From the NCBI GenBank assembly GCA_040904565.1, contig JBBDTI010000016.1, forward strand, positions 96,298 to 132,327: a stretch of DNA of 36,030 nt, given 5' to 3'. The notes under the pieces are model-generated. The model was not told the origin of the DNA. It saw only the letters and a list, made by a program, of their open reading frames with translations, and ran no database searches. Position 1 is the first letter of the stretch. Every line of letters starts with the position of its first letter. The translations under genes were made by a program, and so were the position numbers. This document shows, piece after piece, positions 23,621 to 35,530 of the stretch. Source of the stretch: Rhodothermales bacterium (GTDB taxonomy: Bacteria; Bacteroidota; Rhodothermia; Rhodothermales; VXPQ01).

Positions 23621-24778
23621 ATGAGTGCATTCCTGAAACTGTCACGGTGGCTCGAGGCACACCGTGACGTGGCATTCGACCTGCTCCGCATGTACCTCGG
23701 AGTTGGGCTATTCGCGAGAGGCATCCTCTTCGTCGTACGACCTGAGGCGTATACGACGCTGATCTCGGCCGCCGATGCGTCGGTACTTACGTCTCCGCCG
23801 GTCATGTATCTCGTGGCCACCGTACACGTGATCGGCGGCTTGATGCTGGCCGTTGGATTCTACACGCGGCTGGCGGCACTCATCAATATTCCCATCCTAC
23901 TGGGGGCCCTGGTGCTCATCCACCTTCAGGGCGGCCTCTTTACGGCGAGTCAGTCGTTCGAATTCTCGGCGCTGGTTCTTTTCTTGCTATTCCTGGCTTT
24001 TCTACATGGATCGGGTCGCTGGTCGGTCGACGCACGCCGTACGCCACAATTCGTCCCCTTTCAGAAATATGTGGATCGACTCGATCGTTCGGGCGACGTA
24101 GCTTTCGAGCTCCTTCGCATCTACCTGGGCGTCGGTCTATTCGTGCGCGGCATCCTGTTTATCTCGAACTCGAGCGCCTTCATGGAGCTGCTCGGCAGCT
24201 CGTCGGCAGCCTGGCTTACGTCGGTCGCACTGATCCACTACGTGGCCCTGTCACACCTCGTGGGCGGCATCATGATCGCAATTGGACTCTTCACCCGGGC
24301 CGCCGCACTCGTACAGCTTCCCGCCCTCGTCGGCGCCGTATTCGTCGTGCACTTTCAGGGTGGGTTGCTGGCGCCGAGCCAGTCTCTGGAATTTTCCGCG
24401 CTCGTCCTCTTCCTGCTCGTGCTCGTCTTTCTGTGGGGATCCGGTAACCTGTCGGTCGACAATTACGTGATCGAGCAGCCGGTCGACGAGGAGTTGTACC
24501 GGCACGCCGGCTCGCTCGGTGCTCGTTCCACGGAGCCCGAGCCGCTGTTGAGTTCGGAGCCGACTACAACGATGCGGCACGCCAGATGCTCCTGCGGACA
24601 TGGTGTCGATCATCCGCGGGTGACCGCCCACGCCAGATACAGTATGTGGGGAGCCATGTACTTCCTGTCAGGGATCACCGGGCCACCCAAAGAAATCGTC
24701 TTTTCGTGCGGAGACTGCGGCGAGGTGATCGCGAAGAGCCACGAGCCGGAGGTGCTGGAACGGTATCGGTACCCGTGA
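23621..24778 (+). CDS. Tandem-duplicated DoxX family membrane protein with a C-terminal Cys/His metal-binding module
   Basis: Two homologous repeats (LLRxYLGVGLF...GxxTRxAAL...H.QGG...GSGxxSVD); tail CSCGH...CGDC; ggagg SD. Confidence 0.85.
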   Translation: MSAFLKLSRWLEAHRDVAFDLLRMYLGVGLFARGILFVVRPEAYTTLISAADASVLTSPPVMYLVATVHVIGGLMLAVGFYTRLAALINIPILLGALVLIHLQGGLFTASQSFEFSALVLFLLFLAFLHGSGRWSVDARRTPQFVPFQKYVDRLDRSGDVAFELLRIYLGVGLFVRGILFISNSSAFMELLGSSSAAWLTSVALIHYVALSHLVGGIMIAIGLFTRAAALVQLPALVGAVFVVHFQGGLLAPSQSLEFSALVLFLLVLVFLWGSGNLSVDNYVIEQPVDEELYRHAGSLGARSTEPEPLLSSEPTTTMRHARCSCGHGVDHPRVTAHARYSMWGAMYFLSGITGPPKEIVFSCGDCGEVIAKSHEPEVLERYRYP

Positions 24779-24797
24779 TCCGGCTTGCTGCGCGGGC

Positions 24798-25568
24798 TTA
24801 CGCTCCCGGCCCCGCCGACTGTTCGTCGAGCCACGCCTGGAAGTCGGCCTCCGAATGGACGGTAAAGTATCCGCGCATCCGATAATGCCCCACGCCGCAC
24901 AGCTGCGCGCAGGAGATCTCCCAGTCGCCCGTGCTCGTCGGCGTGAAATAGAGCGGAATCGATAGCCCCGGAATGGCGTCCTGCTTGACGCGCATCTCCG
25001 CGAGGCTGAAGCTGTGAATCACGTCCTTGGAGGTCAGGTGAACGATCACGGGGCGGTCGACGGGTACGTGCAGCTCGTTCACCGTCACGATATCATCCGC
25101 ACCCGCCGGATCGTCGGGCCTCAGTCCGATCGGATTCGTCTGCAGATCGATCAGCTCGATATCGCGCTCTCCGAACTCACCATCCGGCCCCGGGTAGTGC
25201 ACGTTCCACGCGAACTGTTCGCCGATGACGTGGACCACCGTCGATTCCTCCTCGGTCGGATAGTTAGCCTCCGCCCGCAAGGCCGCCCACGTGGGCACGG
25301 CGAATCCGAACAGCAGAACGAGCTCCGCCACGACGACACCCACTTCTTGATACGTCGAAAGATGGCTGTGTACGCCGAAGTAATCGGCCTTGGGATTCTT
25401 CGACGCCCTGAACCGGTAGAGGGTGTACAGGAAGAACGGTGCCCAGATCACGAAGAGAATGATCATGAGCCAGTGCACCAGACCCATGAGGGCGTCTACT
25501 TGCGCGCTGTGGGCCGACGCGGCCTCGGGCATCCCAAGGAGGGGAGATAAGTCAAGCCAATCGAACAT
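24798..25568 (-). CDS. coxB: Cytochrome c oxidase subunit II (CuA), no fused cytochrome c
   Basis: Two TMs, GEQFAWNVHY, DVIHSF, KQDAIPG and CAQLCGVGHYRM. Confidence 0.95.
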   Translation of the reverse strand: MFDWLDLSPLLGMPEAASAHSAQVDALMGLVHWLMIILFVIWAPFFLYTLYRFRASKNPKADYFGVHSHLSTYQEVGVVVAELVLLFGFAVPTWAALRAEANYPTEEESTVVHVIGEQFAWNVHYPGPDGEFGERDIELIDLQTNPIGLRPDDPAGADDIVTVNELHVPVDRPVIVHLTSKDVIHSFSLAEMRVKQDAIPGLSIPLYFTPTSTGDWEISCAQLCGVGHYRMRGYFTVHSEADFQAWLDEQSAGPGA

Positions 25569-25601
25569 GACGATTTCCGGCAGATCTGGTCTAGTTTCTG
25601 T

Positions 25602-25895
25602 TTAGGATGGGTCCCCGTCGACGTGGCGCACGTCCCCGTATTGGGTAACGACGACATCGCTGCGTTCGAGACGACTCGAACGGCGCTGCACGTTATAGAA
25701 AAAAGCGCCGATCCCGCCGCCCACGACGCCTACCATGCCGATCAGCGAGAGCATAGCCATGCTGATGCCGCGCGTGATGGGCGTGTCGACCCCCGCGCCC
25801 CAGCACATTTCACACGCCGAGGCAACGTCCGGGCCCAGTGCCCATCCGACGGCGACAATCCCGAGCACGACGAGGTTCTTCTGGAGCTTTGTCAT
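25602..25895 (-). CDS. Small exported/membrane protein with CxxC after a predicted signal peptide
   Basis: Hydrophobic N-region, ASA-CEMC, then a Gly-rich TM; inside the cox operon. Confidence 0.75.
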   Translation of the reverse strand: MTKLQKNLVVLGIVAVGWALGPDVASACEMCWGAGVDTPITRGISMAMLSLIGMVGVVGGGIGAFFYNVQRRSSRLERSDVVVTQYGDVRHVDGDPS

Positions 25896-25910
25896 GATGA
25901 CCACCGCGTG

Positions 25911-26117
25911 TTACAGATATCCGATATGCTTCAACTTCCTTAGAAAGCGAACGCCGTAGACGACCAGACCGACCCCCACACCGAACGAGACGAGTCCAGC
26001 CACCAGCATCCACACGTTGCCCGACTCCGCATACCGCGCGAGCTCCCACACCCCGAACCCCACGGCAAGCAGGGTCGACACGGCGATGAACACGATATGA
26101 AAGGCCTTCAGAGACAT
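25911..26117 (-). CDS. Small two-TM membrane protein of the oxidase operon
   Basis: 68 aa, MSLKAFHIVFI..., two hydrophobic helices, tight spacing to both neighbours. Confidence 0.75.
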   Translation of the reverse strand: MSLKAFHIVFIAVSTLLAVGFGVWELARYAESGNVWMLVAGLVSFGVGVGLVVYGVRFLRKLKHIGYL

Positions 26118-26129
26118 GTTCGGCGGTAG

Positions 26130-26450
26130 TTAGAGTCCGGTAACGGCGCCGACCTGATCGTAGTAGTACACGCTCAGTATCGTGAACATGAAGACGAGCA
26201 GCCCGAGGCTCATCCAGACGAGCAACCTTATGACGCGCTCTTCCGACACCAGGTGCATGAAGTAGGCGGCGACGAGGCCCGCTTTGATCGACGCGATGAC
26301 GAGCGCGGCGATGAGCGCGGGAAGGATCGGCAGGTGTAGATATCCCACGCCCACCGTGACGACCGTGAGTATGGCCAGCGCGGCAAAGACGGAGATATAT
26401 ACCCGTACGTGCTTCTTAACCTCTTCAATGTTGTGTGCTGCGTCGCTCAT
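26130..26450 (-). CDS. Prokaryotic cytochrome c oxidase subunit IV family protein
   Basis: YISVFAALAILTVVTV and KAGLVAAYFMHL signature; three TMs. Confidence 0.9.
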   Translation of the reverse strand: MSDAAHNIEEVKKHVRVYISVFAALAILTVVTVGVGYLHLPILPALIAALVIASIKAGLVAAYFMHLVSEERVIRLLVWMSLGLLVFMFTILSVYYYDQVGAVTGL

Positions 26451-26498
26451 GGCTGGCTGATCGTTGTGATGACTCGGCGACCGGTATGGACCGCGGGG

Positions 26499-27116
26499 CT
26501 ACAGGAGATAGATGGTTGGAAACAGGAAAATCCAGACGAGATCGACGAAGTGCCAGTACAGTCCGGCGATCTCAATCCGGTTCGTAAATTGCTTCGGGTT
26601 CGTCTTCCACATCTTAGCGCCGGGTCCCCAGAAATACGCGTTCACGATGATGCCGCCGATCACGTGTAGCCCGTGCAGCCCCGTCAGTACGAAGTAGATG
26701 GCCAGGAAATTATGTTCGGCCGGCAGGAGTCCGTGCTCGAACTTGGTCCCGTACTCGAACGCCTTGACGACGAGAAACGCAAATCCGAGCAGGATCGTCG
26801 CACCCATGTAGAGCTTGTAGCGATCGAACCGGTCCATGGCCAGCGACGCCCACGACATCACCATCGTTACGCTCGATCCGATCAGGATCATCGTGTTGAG
26901 CGTGGCGAGCGGCACATTCAGAATTTCGGAGGCCCTCGCGTACATCACGCCGTGGATCTCACCCGGCCAGGCCGGCGCACCGACGCGTAGAAAAATGTAG
27001 GCCGAAAACAGACCGCCGAAGAGCATCACCTCGGATGCCAGAAACAGCCATACGCCGATCTTGGCGTTGTAGACGCCGGTGTCGGGGCGGGGAGCTACGG
27101 TGTAAGGAATCTGCAT
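26499..27116 (-). CDS. coxC: Heme-copper oxidase subunit III (short five-helix type)
   Basis: WLFLASEVMLFGGLF, NTMILIGSS, TGLHGLHV and YWHFVDLVW. Confidence 0.95.
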   Translation of the reverse strand: MQIPYTVAPRPDTGVYNAKIGVWLFLASEVMLFGGLFSAYIFLRVGAPAWPGEIHGVMYARASEILNVPLATLNTMILIGSSVTMVMSWASLAMDRFDRYKLYMGATILLGFAFLVVKAFEYGTKFEHGLLPAEHNFLAIYFVLTGLHGLHVIGGIIVNAYFWGPGAKMWKTNPKQFTNRIEIAGLYWHFVDLVWIFLFPTIYLL

Positions 27117-27165
27117 GATGCTCTATATCTCTCGATGTGTCTCGCTCGAGCTGTACGGTTCGGCG

Positions 27166-28959
27166 TCAAACGCTCGCCGGCTGCCGTGCCGGTTCGGGCG
27201 GCGTATGCTGCGGCCAGAAGTCGTCGTGAAAGTCGGGATGGCTATACTCGTAGGGCGCCCTGTAGACGCGGGGGAGCGTCTTGAAATTGCCGTGACCGAC
27301 CGGCGGCGATGGCGCGGCAGCCCACTCCAGCGTCGTCGCCTCCCAGTGATTGTCTTCCGCCGGCTTCCCTTTCCACATGCTCATGATCAGGTTCACGATG
27401 AAGGGGATCTGGAAGAGGAACAGCACCCAGGCGGCGATCGACATGACCTCGTTGTAGTGAATCACGCCCTGCGCATGCGCATAGACCTCACCTCCGTCGT
27501 AGAGCCTCCGCGAGACCCCGGCCAGGCCCTGGATGAACATCGGGAAGAAGATTAAATTCATGCTGATGAGGGTACCCCAGAAGTGGATCTTCCCCAGGGC
27601 ATCGTTCATCGTGCGCCCGGTCATCTTCGGGAACCAGTAATAGATGCCGCCCATGAGGGCGAGAATCGTACCGGGAGCGACCACGTAGTGGAAGTGGCCG
27701 ATCACGTAATACGTATCGTGCAGCGGAATATCCGTCGGCGCCAGCCCCAGCGGCAGCCCCGTGAGCCCGCCGATGCCGAACATGGGAAGGAATCCGAGCG
27801 CGAACAACATCGGCGTGGTAAAGCGTATCGATCCGCCCCAGAGCGAGATGAACAACGCCGTAAGGATGATCACGGACGGAATCGAAATGATCATCGTCGT
27901 GGTCTGGAAAAACGTGCTCATCACCTGGCCCATGCCCGTGATGAACATATGATGCGCCCACACGATGAAGGACATGAAGCCAAGAAACAAAAGGGCGTAG
28001 ACCATCACCTTGTAACCCCAGAGCGGCTTGCGCGTGTTGTTGGCGATGATCTCCGCCACGATGCCCATGGCCGGCAGGATCAGGACGTACACTTCCGGAT
28101 GGGCCAGGAACCAGAATAGATGCTGCCAGAGCAGCGGGCTGCCTCCTCCGGCAACGTCCAGGGCTTCACCGCTGACGACCAGGCCGGACGGCAGGAAGAA
28201 GCTCGTGTCGAGCAGGCGGTCGGACAGCTGCAGGACGGAGGCTGCTTCGAGCGGCGGGAAGGCCAGCAGCAGCAAGAACGACGTGACGAACTGCGCCCAT
28301 ACGAAGAACGGCATGCGCATGAACGTCATGCCGTCGGCGCGGAGCTGGATGATGGTCGTCAGGAAATTAACGGCACCGAGCAACGATGACGTGATGAGGA
28401 AAACCATCCCCAGCAGCCACATCGTCTGGCCCATCGTCTCGATGACGGAAAGCGGCGCGTAGGACGTCCAACCCGCCTTGGCCGCGCCCGCCGGGACGAA
28501 GAAACTCCCCAGCATCACGAGACCGCCCATGACGAAAACCCAGTAGCTCGCCATGTTCAGCTTGGGAAACGCCATGTCGGGCGCACCAATCTGAAGCGGC
28601 ACGATGTAGTTGCCGAAAGCGCCTACCGCCAGCGGAACGATGCCCAGGAATACCATGATCGTGCCGTGCATGGCCCCGAGCTGATTGTAGAACTCGGGAA
28701 GCATGACGCCTCCGGGCATCGTCTCGTCGCTGAAAAGGCTTCCAATGATCGGCAGGGCCTCACCAGGATAGGCGAGCTGCCACCTCATCAGCATCACGAG
28801 GGAGAACCCGAAGAGCAGGAAGAACAGTGACGTGATACCGTACTGAATCCCGATGACCTTATGGTCGGTCGAAAAAATGTACTTCCTCCAGAAAGGAAGG
28901 TCGTGGTGATGTCCTTCCTCACCGTCGTGGCTTTCTGGTGCGGTGGCGTGTTCAGCCAT
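27166..28959 (-). CDS. coxA: Heme-copper oxidase subunit I, A-family (HPEVY type) with an atypical K-channel
   Basis: STDHKVIG, MHGTIM, DMAFP, GWTSYAPL, WFLAHPEVY, WAHHMF, HDTYYVIGHFHY and GVSRR. Confidence 0.97.
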   Translation of the reverse strand: MAEHATAPESHDGEEGHHHDLPFWRKYIFSTDHKVIGIQYGITSLFFLLFGFSLVMLMRWQLAYPGEALPIIGSLFSDETMPGGVMLPEFYNQLGAMHGTIMVFLGIVPLAVGAFGNYIVPLQIGAPDMAFPKLNMASYWVFVMGGLVMLGSFFVPAGAAKAGWTSYAPLSVIETMGQTMWLLGMVFLITSSLLGAVNFLTTIIQLRADGMTFMRMPFFVWAQFVTSFLLLLAFPPLEAASVLQLSDRLLDTSFFLPSGLVVSGEALDVAGGGSPLLWQHLFWFLAHPEVYVLILPAMGIVAEIIANNTRKPLWGYKVMVYALLFLGFMSFIVWAHHMFITGMGQVMSTFFQTTTMIISIPSVIILTALFISLWGGSIRFTTPMLFALGFLPMFGIGGLTGLPLGLAPTDIPLHDTYYVIGHFHYVVAPGTILALMGGIYYWFPKMTGRTMNDALGKIHFWGTLISMNLIFFPMFIQGLAGVSRRLYDGGEVYAHAQGVIHYNEVMSIAAWVLFLFQIPFIVNLIMSMWKGKPAEDNHWEATTLEWAAAPSPPVGHGNFKTLPRVYRAPYEYSHPDFHDDFWPQHTPPEPARQPASV

Positions 28960-29070
28960 AGCGCATCGTCCGTATCTTGGTCGTCAAAATGGGTAGGTAG
29001 GGTACGCGCGTACCGATGTGGCGCACGCCGTTGGAGCGTGGGGTGCCGGATCACGGGTCACCCCGCCGAA

Positions 29071-29847
29071 TTAGCTTGCCGCCGCGCCGCCTTCGAAAGT
29101 AAAGTCGAGACTGACGGATTCACCGTCACCCACGCTCACGTTCTGCGTCTGGGTGCCGTACTCCTCGTGCCAGGCTTCGATCACGTAATCCCCAGCGGGG
29201 AGATTGTCGATCGAATAGCCCCCCGATTCGTCGGATGTGCTGAAGAAGGGATGCTCCGTTACCCCGGCCCAGGCCTCCATCCAGGGATGAACGTCGCACT
29301 TGATGCGTACCATGATCTCAGGAACGCGAAACGCTTCGTCACGCTGCTGACCGGCCGTAGGCATACCGAAATTAAACGGCCTGTTCTCGTTCGGAAGCGC
29401 ATGTATGTTGTGCAGCATCGGATCGCTGTTGTGAATCCTCAACGTCTGACCCGCCTGCACGCCGAAGACGTGGGGAGAGTACATGCACCCCTGCTGGTCC
29501 AGGATGACGGGCTCCTGACTCGGAGCGAACTGCTGGTCACCCAGACCTTCCTTGACGTAGACGAAGACCCAGCGCAGCGTACCGTTGTCGTTGACGACGA
29601 CGCGCTGGCTCAACGCCGGCTCGTCGCGCAGTCCCATGCATTCGCGATCGAGATTGAGCTCCTGGCGCTCCTGTGCCGTACCCGTGAATTGAATGGATCC
29701 CGCGACCGTGGCGCTTCCGGTCGGCGCCTGCTCGGCCGTGGCCGCGTCCGACTCGGACGCCCCACCAGATTCTCCGCCGCCTCCACAGCCGGCAAGGACG
29801 AAGGCTGAGGTGGTAACTGCAAGAACTAAAATCTTGATGCTGCTCAT
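29071..29847 (-). CDS. Lipoprotein with a cupredoxin-like copper motif and a carboxypeptidase-regulatory-like beta domain
   Basis: Lipobox LAGC, DQQGCMYSPHV, NSDPMLHNIH, CDVHPWM, then GGYSIDNLPAGDYVIEAWH; first gene of the operon. Confidence 0.85.
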   Translation of the reverse strand: MSSIKILVLAVTTSAFVLAGCGGGGESGGASESDAATAEQAPTGSATVAGSIQFTGTAQERQELNLDRECMGLRDEPALSQRVVVNDNGTLRWVFVYVKEGLGDQQFAPSQEPVILDQQGCMYSPHVFGVQAGQTLRIHNSDPMLHNIHALPNENRPFNFGMPTAGQQRDEAFRVPEIMVRIKCDVHPWMEAWAGVTEHPFFSTSDESGGYSIDNLPAGDYVIEAWHEEYGTQTQNVSVGDGESVSLDFTFEGGAAAS

Positions 29848-29859
29848 AGGGTACGTCAC

Positions 29860-30284
29860 TCTCTTTGGTGAATGAACAACCTATATGGAACAGCGTGAAC
29901 CGACTAGGCGGCCACTAAACACTGTATGCACATGGGGTGGCTTGTGCGCTATTCCCGACGACTTACGCACGAAAGGCGGCCTAACAACTACAGGCCGCCA
30001 GGCGCTTGCAACGGGACGTTACTGCTCTACGCTTCAATACGATGTTTCTCAAGACGGTCTCTGCTTTCCGTTACTACCTGGTTTCACTACTGAGATCCGT
30101 TGTGTACTGTGATTATCGAAAATATAGCAAAATTTCAAGCGCTAATGTAGCTGAATATGCCGGCAATCTATGCCGAAACGCAGATGGGAGATTGTTTTAG
30201 CTTGACGGCCCCATAGGAATTCCGGCACCAACCTCGATCGTTCCGTTCCTTCCGTCCTTCCTCGCCGAACGTCCTCGACGTACT
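29860..30284. promoter_or_regulatory. AT-richer divergent promoter/leader region of the oxidase operon
   Basis: About 425 bp between divergent genes; 8-bp stem ggcggcct/aggccgcc (29975-29999); palindrome cggca-N5-tgccg (30161-30175). Confidence 0.5.
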
Positions 30285-30644
30285 ATGGAGTGGCTCTGGC
30301 CGTTATTCGAACCATATATCCGAAAAGACTTCGAACGCAAAGGCATCGACGCACCCGCGGCGTCGGCCCTGCACGATGCGTTCGTACGGCTCGTCGGCAC
30401 GGTAACCGTAACGATCCTCGTCCAGGAGCCGTGGCGCGGTTCGGTGCGGTTCAAGGGACTGGACCGCATGCCGGCCGCGGAGAACATGGCGCTGCTCAAC
30501 GATCCGGAGGCGTATCTGTACGAACGCTTTGGCGGCGGCAAGTACAAGCTCAATTTCCACGAGGGCTGGAATTTCGTCGCGACACAGAATTTCAAGCCGG
30601 AAGGTGAACCGCGATGGAAGGACCTGCCCGGCATGGACTTCTGA
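30285..30644 (+). CDS. Hypothetical soluble protein
   Basis: 119 aa with an aromatic-rich, protein-like C-terminus (YLYERFGGGKYKLNFHEGWNFVATQNF) and GC-ending codons. Confidence 0.75.
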   Translation: MEWLWPLFEPYIRKDFERKGIDAPAASALHDAFVRLVGTVTVTILVQEPWRGSVRFKGLDRMPAAENMALLNDPEAYLYERFGGGKYKLNFHEGWNFVATQNFKPEGEPRWKDLPGMDF

Positions 30645-33616: not shown

Positions 33617-35530
33617 CTATTCGTTTTGCGCTCGAATGGCTTCTTCCATGGCTTTCCGCGCCGCTTCGATGCCTTCTTCGGCGACCTCCAGCGTCACGAT
33701 GCTCGTGTCACGCCGATCGGCTGCCTCCTCCATCCGTTCCCGGGTCTTTTCGCGCATGAATCCCTCGGGGACGCGCTCGAGCCGCGCCCAGGCGTCGGGC
33801 GTCCACTTGTAGTTCCCCTTCTCGAGCAGATCGACGGACGACGGGTCACGGCGTTCGGGAGCGTCCGAAGACGGCTTCAGCCGTCCCCGCTCAGAAAGCT
33901 CCGAGGTATCCTCCAGCAGATCGGCGACGACGCCGGCAACCATCTCGTGCGTGATGGTATCGAGCCCTTTCACGCGCGCGCTCTTTTCGATCTGTGCGCG
34001 GGCGCGCCGCATCTGATATCCGTCCGGTACCTTGCGCAGCAGGTCTCTCGCGTCGCGCGTCCACGACAGCTTCTTCTTATCGAACGTCTCCACCTCTTCG
34101 AGGGCCCCTTCGAGCGGTGCGAGTTCCTTGATGGCTTCCTTGTCCAGCTTGTGGAACGATTCGGGCGGCGCGCTGCATACGGCGCAGACGGCCGGCTCGA
34201 AGCCGCGGGCGGCGTACCCGCAGTTGCTGCAGATGTACGTGACTTCGTCGCTCGATTCCACCTTGTCCCGTGCCACCGTCTCCGCGATGATGCCCATCGA
34301 TTTCATGGCGGACTCAGGCAGGATCGTGGCCATCGACTGTTCGACGACCTTACGGGTGATGACCGAGTGCCCTCGTTCCATGGCCCAGCGATGAATGGTC
34401 GTCCGCGCGATGTTGCGGGCGAAGTCCGGTGCCGTATCGACCAGCGCCGTCGCCTCGTCCGTCCACAGCATGGATTCCTCGGCCTGCACGTCGAGCGGCG
34501 GCGTGTAGCGCCGGCTCGACAGCAGCACGTTGCACGAGGCCATCCGCAGGAGGTTTTCCGTGTTGCTGCCGATGTCCATATCTTCGTCGCTGTGCACGCC
34601 GATACGGCCGACGACGAGCAGCCACGGCTTCTCGCGGCGCACGTACTGCAGGATCTTGTCGAACGCCTTGCCGTCGAGCAGCGTGATCTTCAGATCGACG
34701 CCCTCGTCGGCAGCGATGCGGCGGGCCACTTCCAGATGCGACTGGTAGATCTTCGCCAGGCCCGTATCGATCACCTCTTCGTGGAGCTGTTCCTGCTCCT
34801 TGAACCTGAAAACCTTCGAGGCCTTCTCCGTGAGCACGTTTACGATGCTGTTGAACATCGCGTAATGGAGGTACGGATCGTAGACGGACACCGCCTCGAC
34901 GCGCTTGTCCAGCTTCCGGCCCAGTTCCAGCGCCGTTTTGAGTCCGGCGAACGACTCCGGACTGCCGTCGACGCCGACGACGATGTGTCCACCGTGCGGC
35001 TCGCCGACCTCTTTGCCGTTCATCTGCACGTCGAAATCGTCCGTATTCTTGACGACGAGCGTGTCCGTATGCACGCGCCGAACGACGCGCGAGACGACAC
35101 TCCCGAGAACGCTGTCGCGGACGGCTCCGAGCCCGAGCGAGCCCATGACGACCAGGTCGTAGTCGCTCTCCTCGACGTCCTGGACGATCACCTTCCAGTT
35201 CTTCCCGTCGTACATCTTGGGCTTGAAGGGAAGGTTTTCTTCCGCGCACCGCTTCTGCATCACGGTCAGGTAGGAATCGGAGATCAGTTCGAGACCCATC
35301 GTGATGAGCGTGTCGTGGACCTTGCGCTGCTTCTCCATCTCCTCCTCGACGAGGTACTCTTCAGGCAGCGTGAACTCCATCTGCTTGAAGCGGTAGTCGT
35401 GCATCCGCGCCGCGTAGGCGTGGCTGCCGACGAGGCTCGCATTCAGGCGCTTGGCGAGGTTGACGGCCACGTCGATGCTCGCCATCGAGTGATCGGAATT
35501 GTCGACCGGAACGAAGATCTTTTTATACAT
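33617..35530 (-). CDS. Multidomain universal stress protein: Usp-Usp-PCP_red-rubredoxin-like-PCP_red-PCP_red
   Basis: MYKKIFVPVDNSDHS and IVVGVDGSPES Usp starts; two G-x2-G-x9-GS motifs; three W-T-x-[ED]-A...P helical repeats; CSNC...CAVC. Confidence 0.85.
   Translation of the reverse strand: MYKKIFVPVDNSDHSMASIDVAVNLAKRLNASLVGSHAYAARMHDYRFKQMEFTLPEEYLVEEEMEKQRKVHDTLITMGLELISDSYLTVMQKRCAEENLPFKPKMYDGKNWKVIVQDVEESDYDLVVMGSLGLGAVRDSVLGSVVSRVVRRVHTDTLVVKNTDDFDVQMNGKEVGEPHGGHIVVGVDGSPESFAGLKTALELGRKLDKRVEAVSVYDPYLHYAMFNSIVNVLTEKASKVFRFKEQEQLHEEVIDTGLAKIYQSHLEVARRIAADEGVDLKITLLDGKAFDKILQYVRREKPWLLVVGRIGVHSDEDMDIGSNTENLLRMASCNVLLSSRRYTPPLDVQAEESMLWTDEATALVDTAPDFARNIARTTIHRWAMERGHSVITRKVVEQSMATILPESAMKSMGIIAETVARDKVESSDEVTYICSNCGYAARGFEPAVCAVCSAPPESFHKLDKEAIKELAPLEGALEEVETFDKKKLSWTRDARDLLRKVPDGYQMRRARAQIEKSARVKGLDTITHEMVAGVVADLLEDTSELSERGRLKPSSDAPERRDPSSVDLLEKGNYKWTPDAWARLERVPEGFMREKTRERMEEAADRRDTSIVTLEVAEEGIEAARKAMEEAIRAQNE

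Follow-up and report, generated by a model that had tools for sequence, protein, structure and literature searches.

The window analysed here (a stretch of 36,030 nucleotides from contig JBBDTI010000016.1 of a Rhodothermales bacterium) encodes on its minus strand CoxI, the subunit I of an A1-type heme-copper oxidase (HCO) in which the lysine of the K-channel (K362 of Rhodobacter sphaeroides) is replaced by isoleucine. This protein was found to belong to a large clade of A-family oxidases that lack the lysine, and on the basis of conservation in sequence we consider it very probable that this clade is real, selected and functional. Subunit II (CoxII) of the same clade carries a clade-specific glutamate, E82, in transmembrane segment 2 (TM2). 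Taking the sequences together with a predicted complex of the two subunits, we give roughly even chances to the reading that the enzyme is a working A1-type aa3-like terminal oxidase with a rerouted K-pathway.

CoxI of the Window Lacks the K-Channel Lysine

The gene and the residues in question are located as follows.

27166–28959, minus strand: CoxI, A1-type heme-copper oxidase subunit I without the K-channel lysine (intact open reading frame, 597 amino acids)
27856–27897, minus strand: helix VIII motif T355–A368, TMIISIPSVIILTA, aligned against Paracoccus TMTIAVPTGIKVFS
28054–28056, minus strand: A302 of helix VI, equivalent to S291 of Paracoccus denitrificans and S299 of R. sphaeroides (alignment and codon check)
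28087–28104, minus strand: AHPEVY, with the CuB ligand H287, E289 (R. sphaeroides E286) and Y291 (R. sphaeroides Y288) (alignment and codons)

CoxI matched PF00115 with 462 bits (cut-off 34.8) and TIGR02891 (CtaD_CoxA) with 589.4 bits, which is under the cut-off of the latter model (670.75). Using phmmer against all PDB chains, the best structural matches were the enzymes of P. denitrificans (1ar1_A, E-value 1e-120) and R. sphaeroides (4e-117), and the best PDB relatives all belong to the A family. The alignment with the Paracoccus protein is ungapped over query residues 317–420, where the query number equals the P. denitrificans number (Pd) plus 11 and the R. sphaeroides number (Rs) plus 3; the Rs numbers follow from this alignment and from Pd plus 8.

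In this alignment, I365 (codon 27865–27867, ATC, in agreement with the codon check) occupies the position of K354Pd/K362Rs, S362 that of T351Pd/T359Rs and A368 that of S357Pd/S365Rs, and further pairs in helix VIII are S359 with Rs A356, V363 with Rs G360 and T367 with Rs F364. An earlier note on this DNA, made from the letters alone, had named T359S, K362I, S365A and S299A, and all four were reproduced by the phmmer alignment and the codon check. Compared with the K-channel set given in a passage of Sousa et al. (2011) in Pd numbering (Lys354, Thr351, Ser291, Tyr280), the lysine is replaced by I365, Ser291 by A302 and Thr351, conservatively, by S362, and the tyrosine is retained.

The D-channel is kept in CoxI (D128, N117, N135, N198 and E289, equivalent to Rs D132, N121, N139, N207 and E286), and so are the six histidine ligands (H98, H287, H336, H337, H422 and H424, equivalent to Pd H94, H276, H325, H326, H411 and H413), the arginine pair (R484, R485) and the active-site tyrosine (Y291, Y288Rs). 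The same note had described these residues as retained in an intact open reading frame, which agrees with the alignment and with the frame of 597 codons. The GHPEVY of canonical enzymes reads AHPEVY in the window (A286).

A Widespread Clade without the Lysine

Our A-family alignment comprised 216 sequences: the window protein, 80 loci found by scanning species-representative genomes, 115 representatives at 50% identity (each of at least 480 amino acids) and 20 close hits (every sixth of P0002–P0120, 20 of 119). The tree (FastTree, LG+gamma, midpoint-rooted) covers sequences with at least 400 aligned residues, which omits, for example, locus L059. The K362 column contains K in 101 sequences, I in 69, L in 23, Q in 9, M in 4, V in 4, E in 2, A in 2, T in 1 and H in 1, and the 101 sequences chosen for K in this column form the K-bearing comparison group used below.

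The window CoxI was found in a clade of 77 tips without any K tip (Shimodaira–Hasegawa-like support 0.905), in which the K362 column contains I (60), L (14) or V (3). The parent node (105 tips, support 1.0) unites this clade with a K-bearing Bacteroidia-type group and other small K-less groups. If the loss marked a subfamily, as had been supposed, close homologues should share the helix, and they do: all 51 loci with at least 57% identity carry the lysine-less helix VIII IS[IV]PS[VI]x[ILV][LIV][TS], and most loci at 43–51% identity have AVPSA[VI]K.

Conservation within the clade is strong at the active site and along the D-channel. E286 and Y288 are each present in 77/77 members, D132, N121 and N139 in 73/77 each and N207 in 74/77, and the six histidine ligands are conserved in 99–100% of the clade; the 120 database proteins closest to the window CoxI (identity 76% or more) without exception contain WFLAHPEVY. 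The change of GHPEVY to AHPEVY, which the earlier note had listed, holds for the window and is not clade-defining (A in 54 and G in 23 of 77). Likewise, S299A is correct for the window protein, and the position varies from member to member (A 54, G 8, S 5, C 5, T 3).

The positions around the missing lysine behave differently from one another. The S365 position is A in 46, C in 18 and S in 10 members, and W366 is changed to L. The Rs T359 position is S in 75/77, G360 is changed to V in 74/77, the Rs A356 position is S in 77/77 (vs. A in 92/101 K-bearing sequences) and the Rs F364 position is T or S in 77/77 (vs. F in 95/101). These patterns suggest that selection on the K-region is split, with the lower positions hydrophobic or variable and hydroxyls fixed at Rs359 and gained at Rs356 and Rs364.

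Members of the clade were detected on contigs labelled Acidobacteriota (including Vicinamibacteria), Verrucomicrobiota (many), Planctomycetota, Marinimicrobia, Ignavibacteriaceae and Omnitrophota, at 57–78% identity, and the closest database proteins to the window CoxI are named Rhodothermales. Cultured carriers, going by record title and hit name, are Rubritalea marina DSM 17716 (locus L050), an aerobe, and Rhodocaloribacter litoris (a match at 80% identity). Within the phylum of the window the occurrence is patchy, a copy at 75% identity or more being present in 11 of 150 sampled genomes and in one of 11 genomes of the same order. Because identities across phyla reach 70–78% and the occurrence is patchy, lateral spread of the operon is suggested. 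Three same-phylum homologues at 75–78% identity (G019:C15:38629-40185, G070:C11:42357-43904 and G029:C33:233883-235439) have one in-frame TAA each, and their matches start only at query residues 70–78; the N-terminus may be split or rearranged, or the assembly may be at fault.

A gene of this kind might be a decaying or inactive paralogue, redundant beside the A2-type caa3 oxidase located 20 kb away on the same contig. The source genome (94.9% complete) contains three HCO genes above the Pfam cut-off, the other two being a K-bearing A2-type CoxI (L001, IPSGIKIF, about 20 kb from the window CoxI) and a B-like HCO (L003, 24% identical to the window CoxI). Against decay, the open reading frame is intact, every cofactor ligand is retained, the same substitutions occur in 77/77 clade members across phyla in a syntenic operon, and some genomes are without any K-bearing A-family gene. 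In R. marina DSM 17716 the K-less gene is the sole A-family PF00115 match, the other two matches being C-family-like, and a Phycisphaerales metagenome-assembled genome has the K-less gene and one more distant HCO. We attach next to no probability to decay, which conservation in the sequences effectively refutes. As all 77 clade tips lack the lysine, across several phyla and in a syntenic operon, the shared helix VIII most plausibly marks a real clade rather than lineage-specific decay, as the earlier note had proposed.

The note had also started from the premise that the lysine is universal in the A family, and this premise proved incorrect: K-less A-family oxidases are in print, and many variants were counted among the 150 best representatives. 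They include other lineages with fully hydrophobic K-regions, forms of about 840 amino acids with K changed to Q or H, changes of K to E, and variants with Asp or Glu one or two residues ahead of the lysine position (examples are L061, L064, L078 and L084; P0134, P0137, P0151, P0167, P0170, P0173, P0175, P0176, P0185, P0209, P0217, P0224, P0225, P0231 and others). Loss of the helix VIII lysine is thus, as judged from these sequences, recurrent in the A family.

Search for a Substitute in Subunits I and II

No clade-specific Lys or Arg was found in subunit I, either among positions at 90% or more in the clade and 15% or less in the K-bearing group or among all conserved charged positions, and the homologues do not retain K362; a compensating lysine within the subunit, against which the earlier note had wanted its reading checked, is therefore not present in this set. 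Two acidic residues of CoxI were considered and rejected. E238 is the sole clade-specific acid, but it is located at the end of helix V on the positive side (P-side) of the membrane, opposite to where the K-path would need it. At the position of E303 (Rs H300), 40 of the 101 K-bearing sequences and the A2-type paralogue of the same genome likewise have Glu.

A candidate was found in another gene of the operon, CoxII.

24798–25568, minus strand: CoxII, 256 amino acids, with a CuA site (ligands H185, C220, C224, H228 and M231) and no cytochrome c domain
25344–25346, minus strand: E75 of CoxII TM2, equivalent to E101(II)Rs (multiple alignment)
25323–25325, minus strand: E82 of CoxII TM2, clade-specific, seven residues past E75 (alignment)

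CoxII TM2 of K-bearing enzymes reads L-E-I-I-W-T-x-x-P, whereas that of the clade reads E75-V-G-V78-V-V-A-E82. In the multiple alignment, E75 is kept in 41/42 clade CoxII proteins and the Trp at +3 is changed to Val. E82 is present in 41/42; the exception, L008, is an open reading frame call without TM2, so that E82 is found in all 41 aligned clade TM2 segments, at CoxII identities down to 38%. At the same position, the 24 K-bearing loci have no Glu (22 have P, one has T and one a gap). Alignment A3 omits L007 and L058, whose tblastn ranges contain stops. The alternative proton path that the earlier note had raised now has a concrete candidate in the clade-invariant TM2 glutamate, encoded by a different gene, and the hydroxyls of helix VIII.

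Predicted Complex of CoxI and CoxII

Prediction of a CoxI–CoxII complex, with an alignment supplied for each subunit, gave an ipSAE score of 0.87, compared with 0.00 for the best of three controls. At least 97% of contacts recur between the runs, and the pLDDT of the partner is at least 84. Of 80 solved complexes 58 reach the score mark applied here, as do 2 of 110 mismatched pairs.

The interface residues in the model are 74–75, 78–79, 82–83, 85–86 and 89–91 of CoxII and, in helix VIII of CoxI, 352–353, 356, 359–360, 363–364, 367–368 and 370–371; CoxI 309–312, at the end of helix VI on the negative side (N-side) of the membrane, is also part of the modelled interface. The model thereby places E75, V78 and E82 on the stripe of TM2 that faces subunit I, and S359, V363 and T367 on the stripe of helix VIII that faces subunit II. 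Since the two helices are antiparallel, TM2 leading from the N-side to the P-side, helix periodicity indicates that E82 should lie opposite CoxI 363–364, level with the missing lysine (365) and between the hydroxyls of T367 and S359.

A Possible Interfacial Proton Path and Its Alternatives

Based on the above, a possible scheme for the enzyme is as follows. Electrons would most likely reach CuA from a type-1 copper lipoprotein encoded in the operon (described below) or, in relatives, from c-type cytochromes. Both the active site and the D-channel are canonical, and the lower half of the usual K-channel (Rs S299, K362, S365) has been given up. We propose a replacement proton path along the transmembrane interface of subunits I and II. 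Protons would enter at E75(II), pass the hydroxyl of T/S367 in helix VIII, arrive at E82(II), a buried and protonatable residue roughly level with the missing lysine, and continue by S359/S362 into the retained upper K-path to Y291. Such an interfacial path would supply the protons of the reductive half-cycle, and the membrane-embedded glutamate, protonated at rest, would act as a proton store at lysine depth. Proton transport by E82, pumping and the part of the cupredoxin as donor are what we infer from these data.

The more specific proposal, that the TM2 glutamate E82, flanked by the newly acquired hydroxyls at Rs356 and Rs364, has taken over from the helix VIII lysine as the proton carrier of the K-pathway (an interfacial "E-pathway"), is one that we hold tentatively, at somewhat below even odds.

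Several points weigh against a rerouted path. The good score of the complex may reflect memory of solved cytochrome c oxidase structures in the prediction method. The depth match of E82 derives from helix periodicity, as the model lists interface residues rather than the partners of E82 or its side-chain geometry. MAFFT pairs E75 with E101(II), but pairwise HMMER alignments with the R. sphaeroides and Paracoccus proteins pair S71 with it and set E75 four residues on, and the register of TM2 is not fully certain from these alignments. The K-less loci L061, L064, L078 and L084 keep Pro at +7; accordingly, K-less oxidases can apparently exist without a TM2 glutamate there. Finally, the co-occurrence of E82 and loss of the lysine has no statistical weight, because all the changes of the clade trace to one ancestral event. 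The K-region of these four loci is hydrophobic throughout, with F or V in place of T359 and L, A, I or F in place of S299. A point in favour of a rerouted path is that L064/L078, an independent K-less lineage, also carry protonatable residues deep in TM2, namely E at +5 and H at +8.

The main rival to a rerouted path is that the K-pathway has been lost, that all protons are taken up by the D-channel, and that E82(II) and the new serines serve interface packing, which we judge possible but rather unlikely. It is consistent with the conservation of the D-channel and E286 in the clade, and with the other A-family lineages in which K362, T359 and S299 are all gone and CoxII has no glutamate at +7 (L061, L064/L078, L084). 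It is also the reading offered in passages of Degli Esposti et al. (10.1101/2020.03.01.968255) for the cytochrome c oxidase (COX) of iron oxidisers. On the other hand, packing alone can hardly be credited with an invariant E82 in every aligned TM2 over so wide a range of identities, and the hydroxyls at Rs356, Rs359 and Rs364 are likewise invariant. Moreover, in established mutant work K362M enzymes fail to reduce the binuclear centre despite an intact D-channel.

Another reading is that the enzyme performs different chemistry, as a nitric oxide (NO) reductase, a peroxidase or a sensor, rather than energy-conserving O2 reduction. K-channel mutants of model enzymes keep peroxide reactivity. Passages of Murali et al. 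(2024) state that A-family oxidases can reduce NO slowly. The same passages describe the HCO-derived NO reductase families as lacking the tyrosine, having altered active sites and being related to the B and C families; by contrast, our clade has kept the cross-link tyrosine, the three CuB histidines, E286 and the D-channel. In addition, CoxIII and CoxIV are kept, the Verrucomicrobia operon is located within a respiratory cluster with c-type cytochromes, and the K-less gene is the only A-family HCO found in the R. marina genome. NO or peroxide handling, which the earlier note had offered as one outcome, finds no support in these features, and we regard it as improbable.

Several other clade-specific features were noted in the two subunits. 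The CuA loop of CoxII reads C-A-Q-L-C, with Q222 (24903–24905, minus strand), vs. C-x-E-x-C in K-bearing enzymes; Q is found in 42/42 clade CoxII proteins and E in 20 of 24 K-bearing loci. The glutamate of C-x-E-x-C also ligates the Mg/Mn site at the interface of subunits I and II in canonical enzymes, and the subunit I ligands of this site, H414 and D415, are retained. H32 in TM1 of CoxII (25473–25475) is a clade-specific histidine (98% vs. 0%), which the complex model sets against the clade-specific L402/P403 of CoxI helix IX.

The loop between helices V and VI of CoxI has a 12-residue insertion, LPSGLVVSGEALDV, within residues 236–270 (about 28150–28254), accompanied by the clade-specific P236, E238 and Q244 at the P-side end of helix V; this insertion could affect the exit path or the region of the Mg site. 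Further clade-specific changes adjoin the heme a ligands: A96, two residues ahead of H98, replaces a T that is present in 93% of K-bearing sequences, and the helix X motif HYV-x-S-x-G has become HYVVAPG in the clade (A428, P429). A96, A428 and P429 correspond to the region called the H-channel in mitochondrial enzymes.

Comparison with Known Oxidases

The canonical A1 aa3 enzymes of Paracoccus (1AR1/1QLE) and R. sphaeroides (1M56) share with the window system the six histidines, HPEVY, the E286 equivalent, the D-channel, the arginine pair, the CuA site and subunits III and IV, and CoxI is about 42–45% identical to them over the full length. It differs from them in subunit I by K362I, S299A, S365A, F364T, W366L, G360V, A356S and the insertion of 12 residues in the helix V–VI loop, and in subunit II by P108 to E and W104 to V in TM2 and by the change of the C-x-E-x-C glutamate to Q. 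The gene order also differs, being I-III-IV-x-x-II with a cupredoxin gene ahead.

A published parallel is the COX of acidophilic Fe2+ oxidisers and relatives, in which, according to passages of Degli Esposti et al. (10.1101/2020.03.01.968255), K354 of COX1 is changed to Ile and E78 of COX2 is lost, called there "a rare case". Both systems have a hydrophobic residue at K354, a D-channel and a cupredoxin gene in the operon (10.1101/2020.03.01.968255; PMC8239418, in the parts that concern these features). The iron-oxidiser enzyme is described in these parts as A2-type, with a COX2 without E78 and the cup gene just before COX2, whereas the window enzyme is A1-type (Glu in HPEVY). Furthermore, our clade keeps the equivalent of E78/E101(II) (in the multiple alignment, as given above) and adds a second glutamate, and the cupredoxin gene of the window lies ahead of CoxI and differs in architecture; this comparison draws on the published descriptions. 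The passages of Degli Esposti et al. name no lysine-less COX1 for Rhodothermales, Verrucomicrobia, Acidobacteria or Planctomycetes.

A K-less COX is also described for Ferrigenium straubiae (10.64898/2026.01.22.701106); in the parts that deal with it, it belongs to a Gallionellaceae lineage with the operon coxBA11C, and no compensating residue is proposed. K-less A-family oxidases as such are hence already published. We found no description in the literature of the A1-type clade, its breadth across phyla, its operon or the second TM2 glutamate, in a search that covered texts other than supplementary figures.

By its sequence, the window CoxI clearly belongs to the A family and not to the B family. 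In the B-family ba3 oxidase of Thermus thermophilus, the analogue of the K-channel is a lysine-free hydroxyl path that starts at a transmembrane glutamate of subunit II, E15(II). Unlike the B family, the window enzyme has an intact D-channel, and M295 and A302 occupy the positions of the B-family helix VI tyrosines. The B family has no D-channel and carries Tyr/Ser/Thr at the S299, T359 and K362 positions, the residues being those given in a passage of Sousa et al. (2011).

Organization of the Operon

CoxI is the second gene of a seven-gene operon on the minus strand, whose order is cupredoxin lipoprotein, CoxI, CoxIII, CoxIV, a 68-amino acid protein, a protein of about 100 amino acids and CoxII. 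In addition to CoxI and CoxII, it contains the following genes.

29071–29859, minus strand: lipoprotein, first gene of the operon, 262 amino acids, lipobox LAGC with Cys25, amicyanin-like type-1 copper (cupredoxin) domain
26499–27116, minus strand: CoxIII, 205 amino acids, short form (PF00510, 3.7e-23)
26130–26450, minus strand: CoxIV, 106 amino acids, caa3-type subunit IV family (PF03626, TIGR02229)
25911–26117, minus strand: conserved open reading frame for a 68-amino acid protein that starts MSLKAFHI and has two predicted transmembrane segments
25602–25904, minus strand: membrane protein of about 100 amino acids with an A-C-x-x-C-[FWY]-G motif (alignment of 12 homologues and open reading frames in further loci)

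A profile built from 22 homologues of the lipoprotein matched, over profile positions 92–179, the blue copper protein 5fc9 (1.3e-5), the cupredoxin domain of the Cu nitrite reductase 9cck (3.7e-5) and, at 1.3e-4 and weaker, amicyanins. H150, C188, H191 and M194 are invariant in these homologues, with the amicyanin-like spacing C-x2-H-x2-M, and are putative copper ligands (H153 being an alternative to H150). Residues 207–255 match Pfam CarboxypepD_reg (E-value 1e-9; a CarboxypepD_reg-like beta-sandwich). It is likely that this lipoprotein donates electrons to CuA. A homologue was detected by tblastn in 24 of the 51 clade loci.

CoxIII follows CoxI in nearly all clade loci (tblastn). CoxII was detected by the same method in 41 of 51; in 37 of these it lies downstream of CoxIV, and in 4 it is upstream, ahead of CoxI. 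The 10 loci without a CoxII match are mostly short contigs. Of 8 loci inspected, 6 (L010, L016, L020, L042, L024, L050) have the 68-amino acid open reading frame between the genes for CoxIV and the CxxC protein, and the motif of the CxxC protein lies between a signal or transmembrane segment and a second transmembrane segment. Both small membrane proteins are conserved across the clade, and neither matched a Pfam or NCBIfam family above threshold; a role as additional subunits or in copper assembly is conceivable.

In the R. marina locus, genes for c-type cytochromes, a CcoN-like protein and an ActF/NrfD-like protein take the place of the lipoprotein. The region upstream of the K-less CoxI there (L050, 1–6000) contains a c-type cytochrome, a 481-amino acid polytopic membrane protein and two further CxxCH proteins, and the cluster also has a divergent CcoN-like protein of 486 amino acids (PF00115, 141.8 bits), a neighbour seen again in genomes G002 and G005.

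A sequence scan of 24500–30400 of the window detected no promoter-like sites and seven terminator-like sites, all within genes, vs. 3.8 expected. A listing of sequencing runs comprised four DNA runs of a single study and none of RNA. A gene for a DoxX/DoxD-like membrane protein of 385 amino acids (23621–24778, plus strand) converges on the 3' end of CoxII. Farther away, a 637-amino acid protein (33617–35530, minus strand) combines universal stress protein domains, three PCP_red repeats (protochlorophyllide reductase 57 kD-like) and a rubredoxin-like domain, which is an unusual architecture.

Implications for A-Family Oxidases

In mechanistic models of cytochrome c oxidase, K362 is regarded as essential and is credited with proton delivery and charge compensation during reduction of the binuclear centre. 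A large, widespread and evidently selected clade that lives without it, keeps the remaining canonical features and has one clear candidate substitute on subunit II is a tractable natural system for asking whether the lysine has a chemical role, which any protonatable group placed at a given depth could fill, or a specific one; it also allows one to ask if the D-channel by itself suffices for an A-type enzyme. In annotation, A-family oxidases cannot be defined by the presence of the K-channel lysine. If the proposed path is true, the K-pathway would be an exchangeable module rather than a fixed feature of A-type oxidases, and the "E-pathway" clade would be a natural experiment on why canonical enzymes use lysine.

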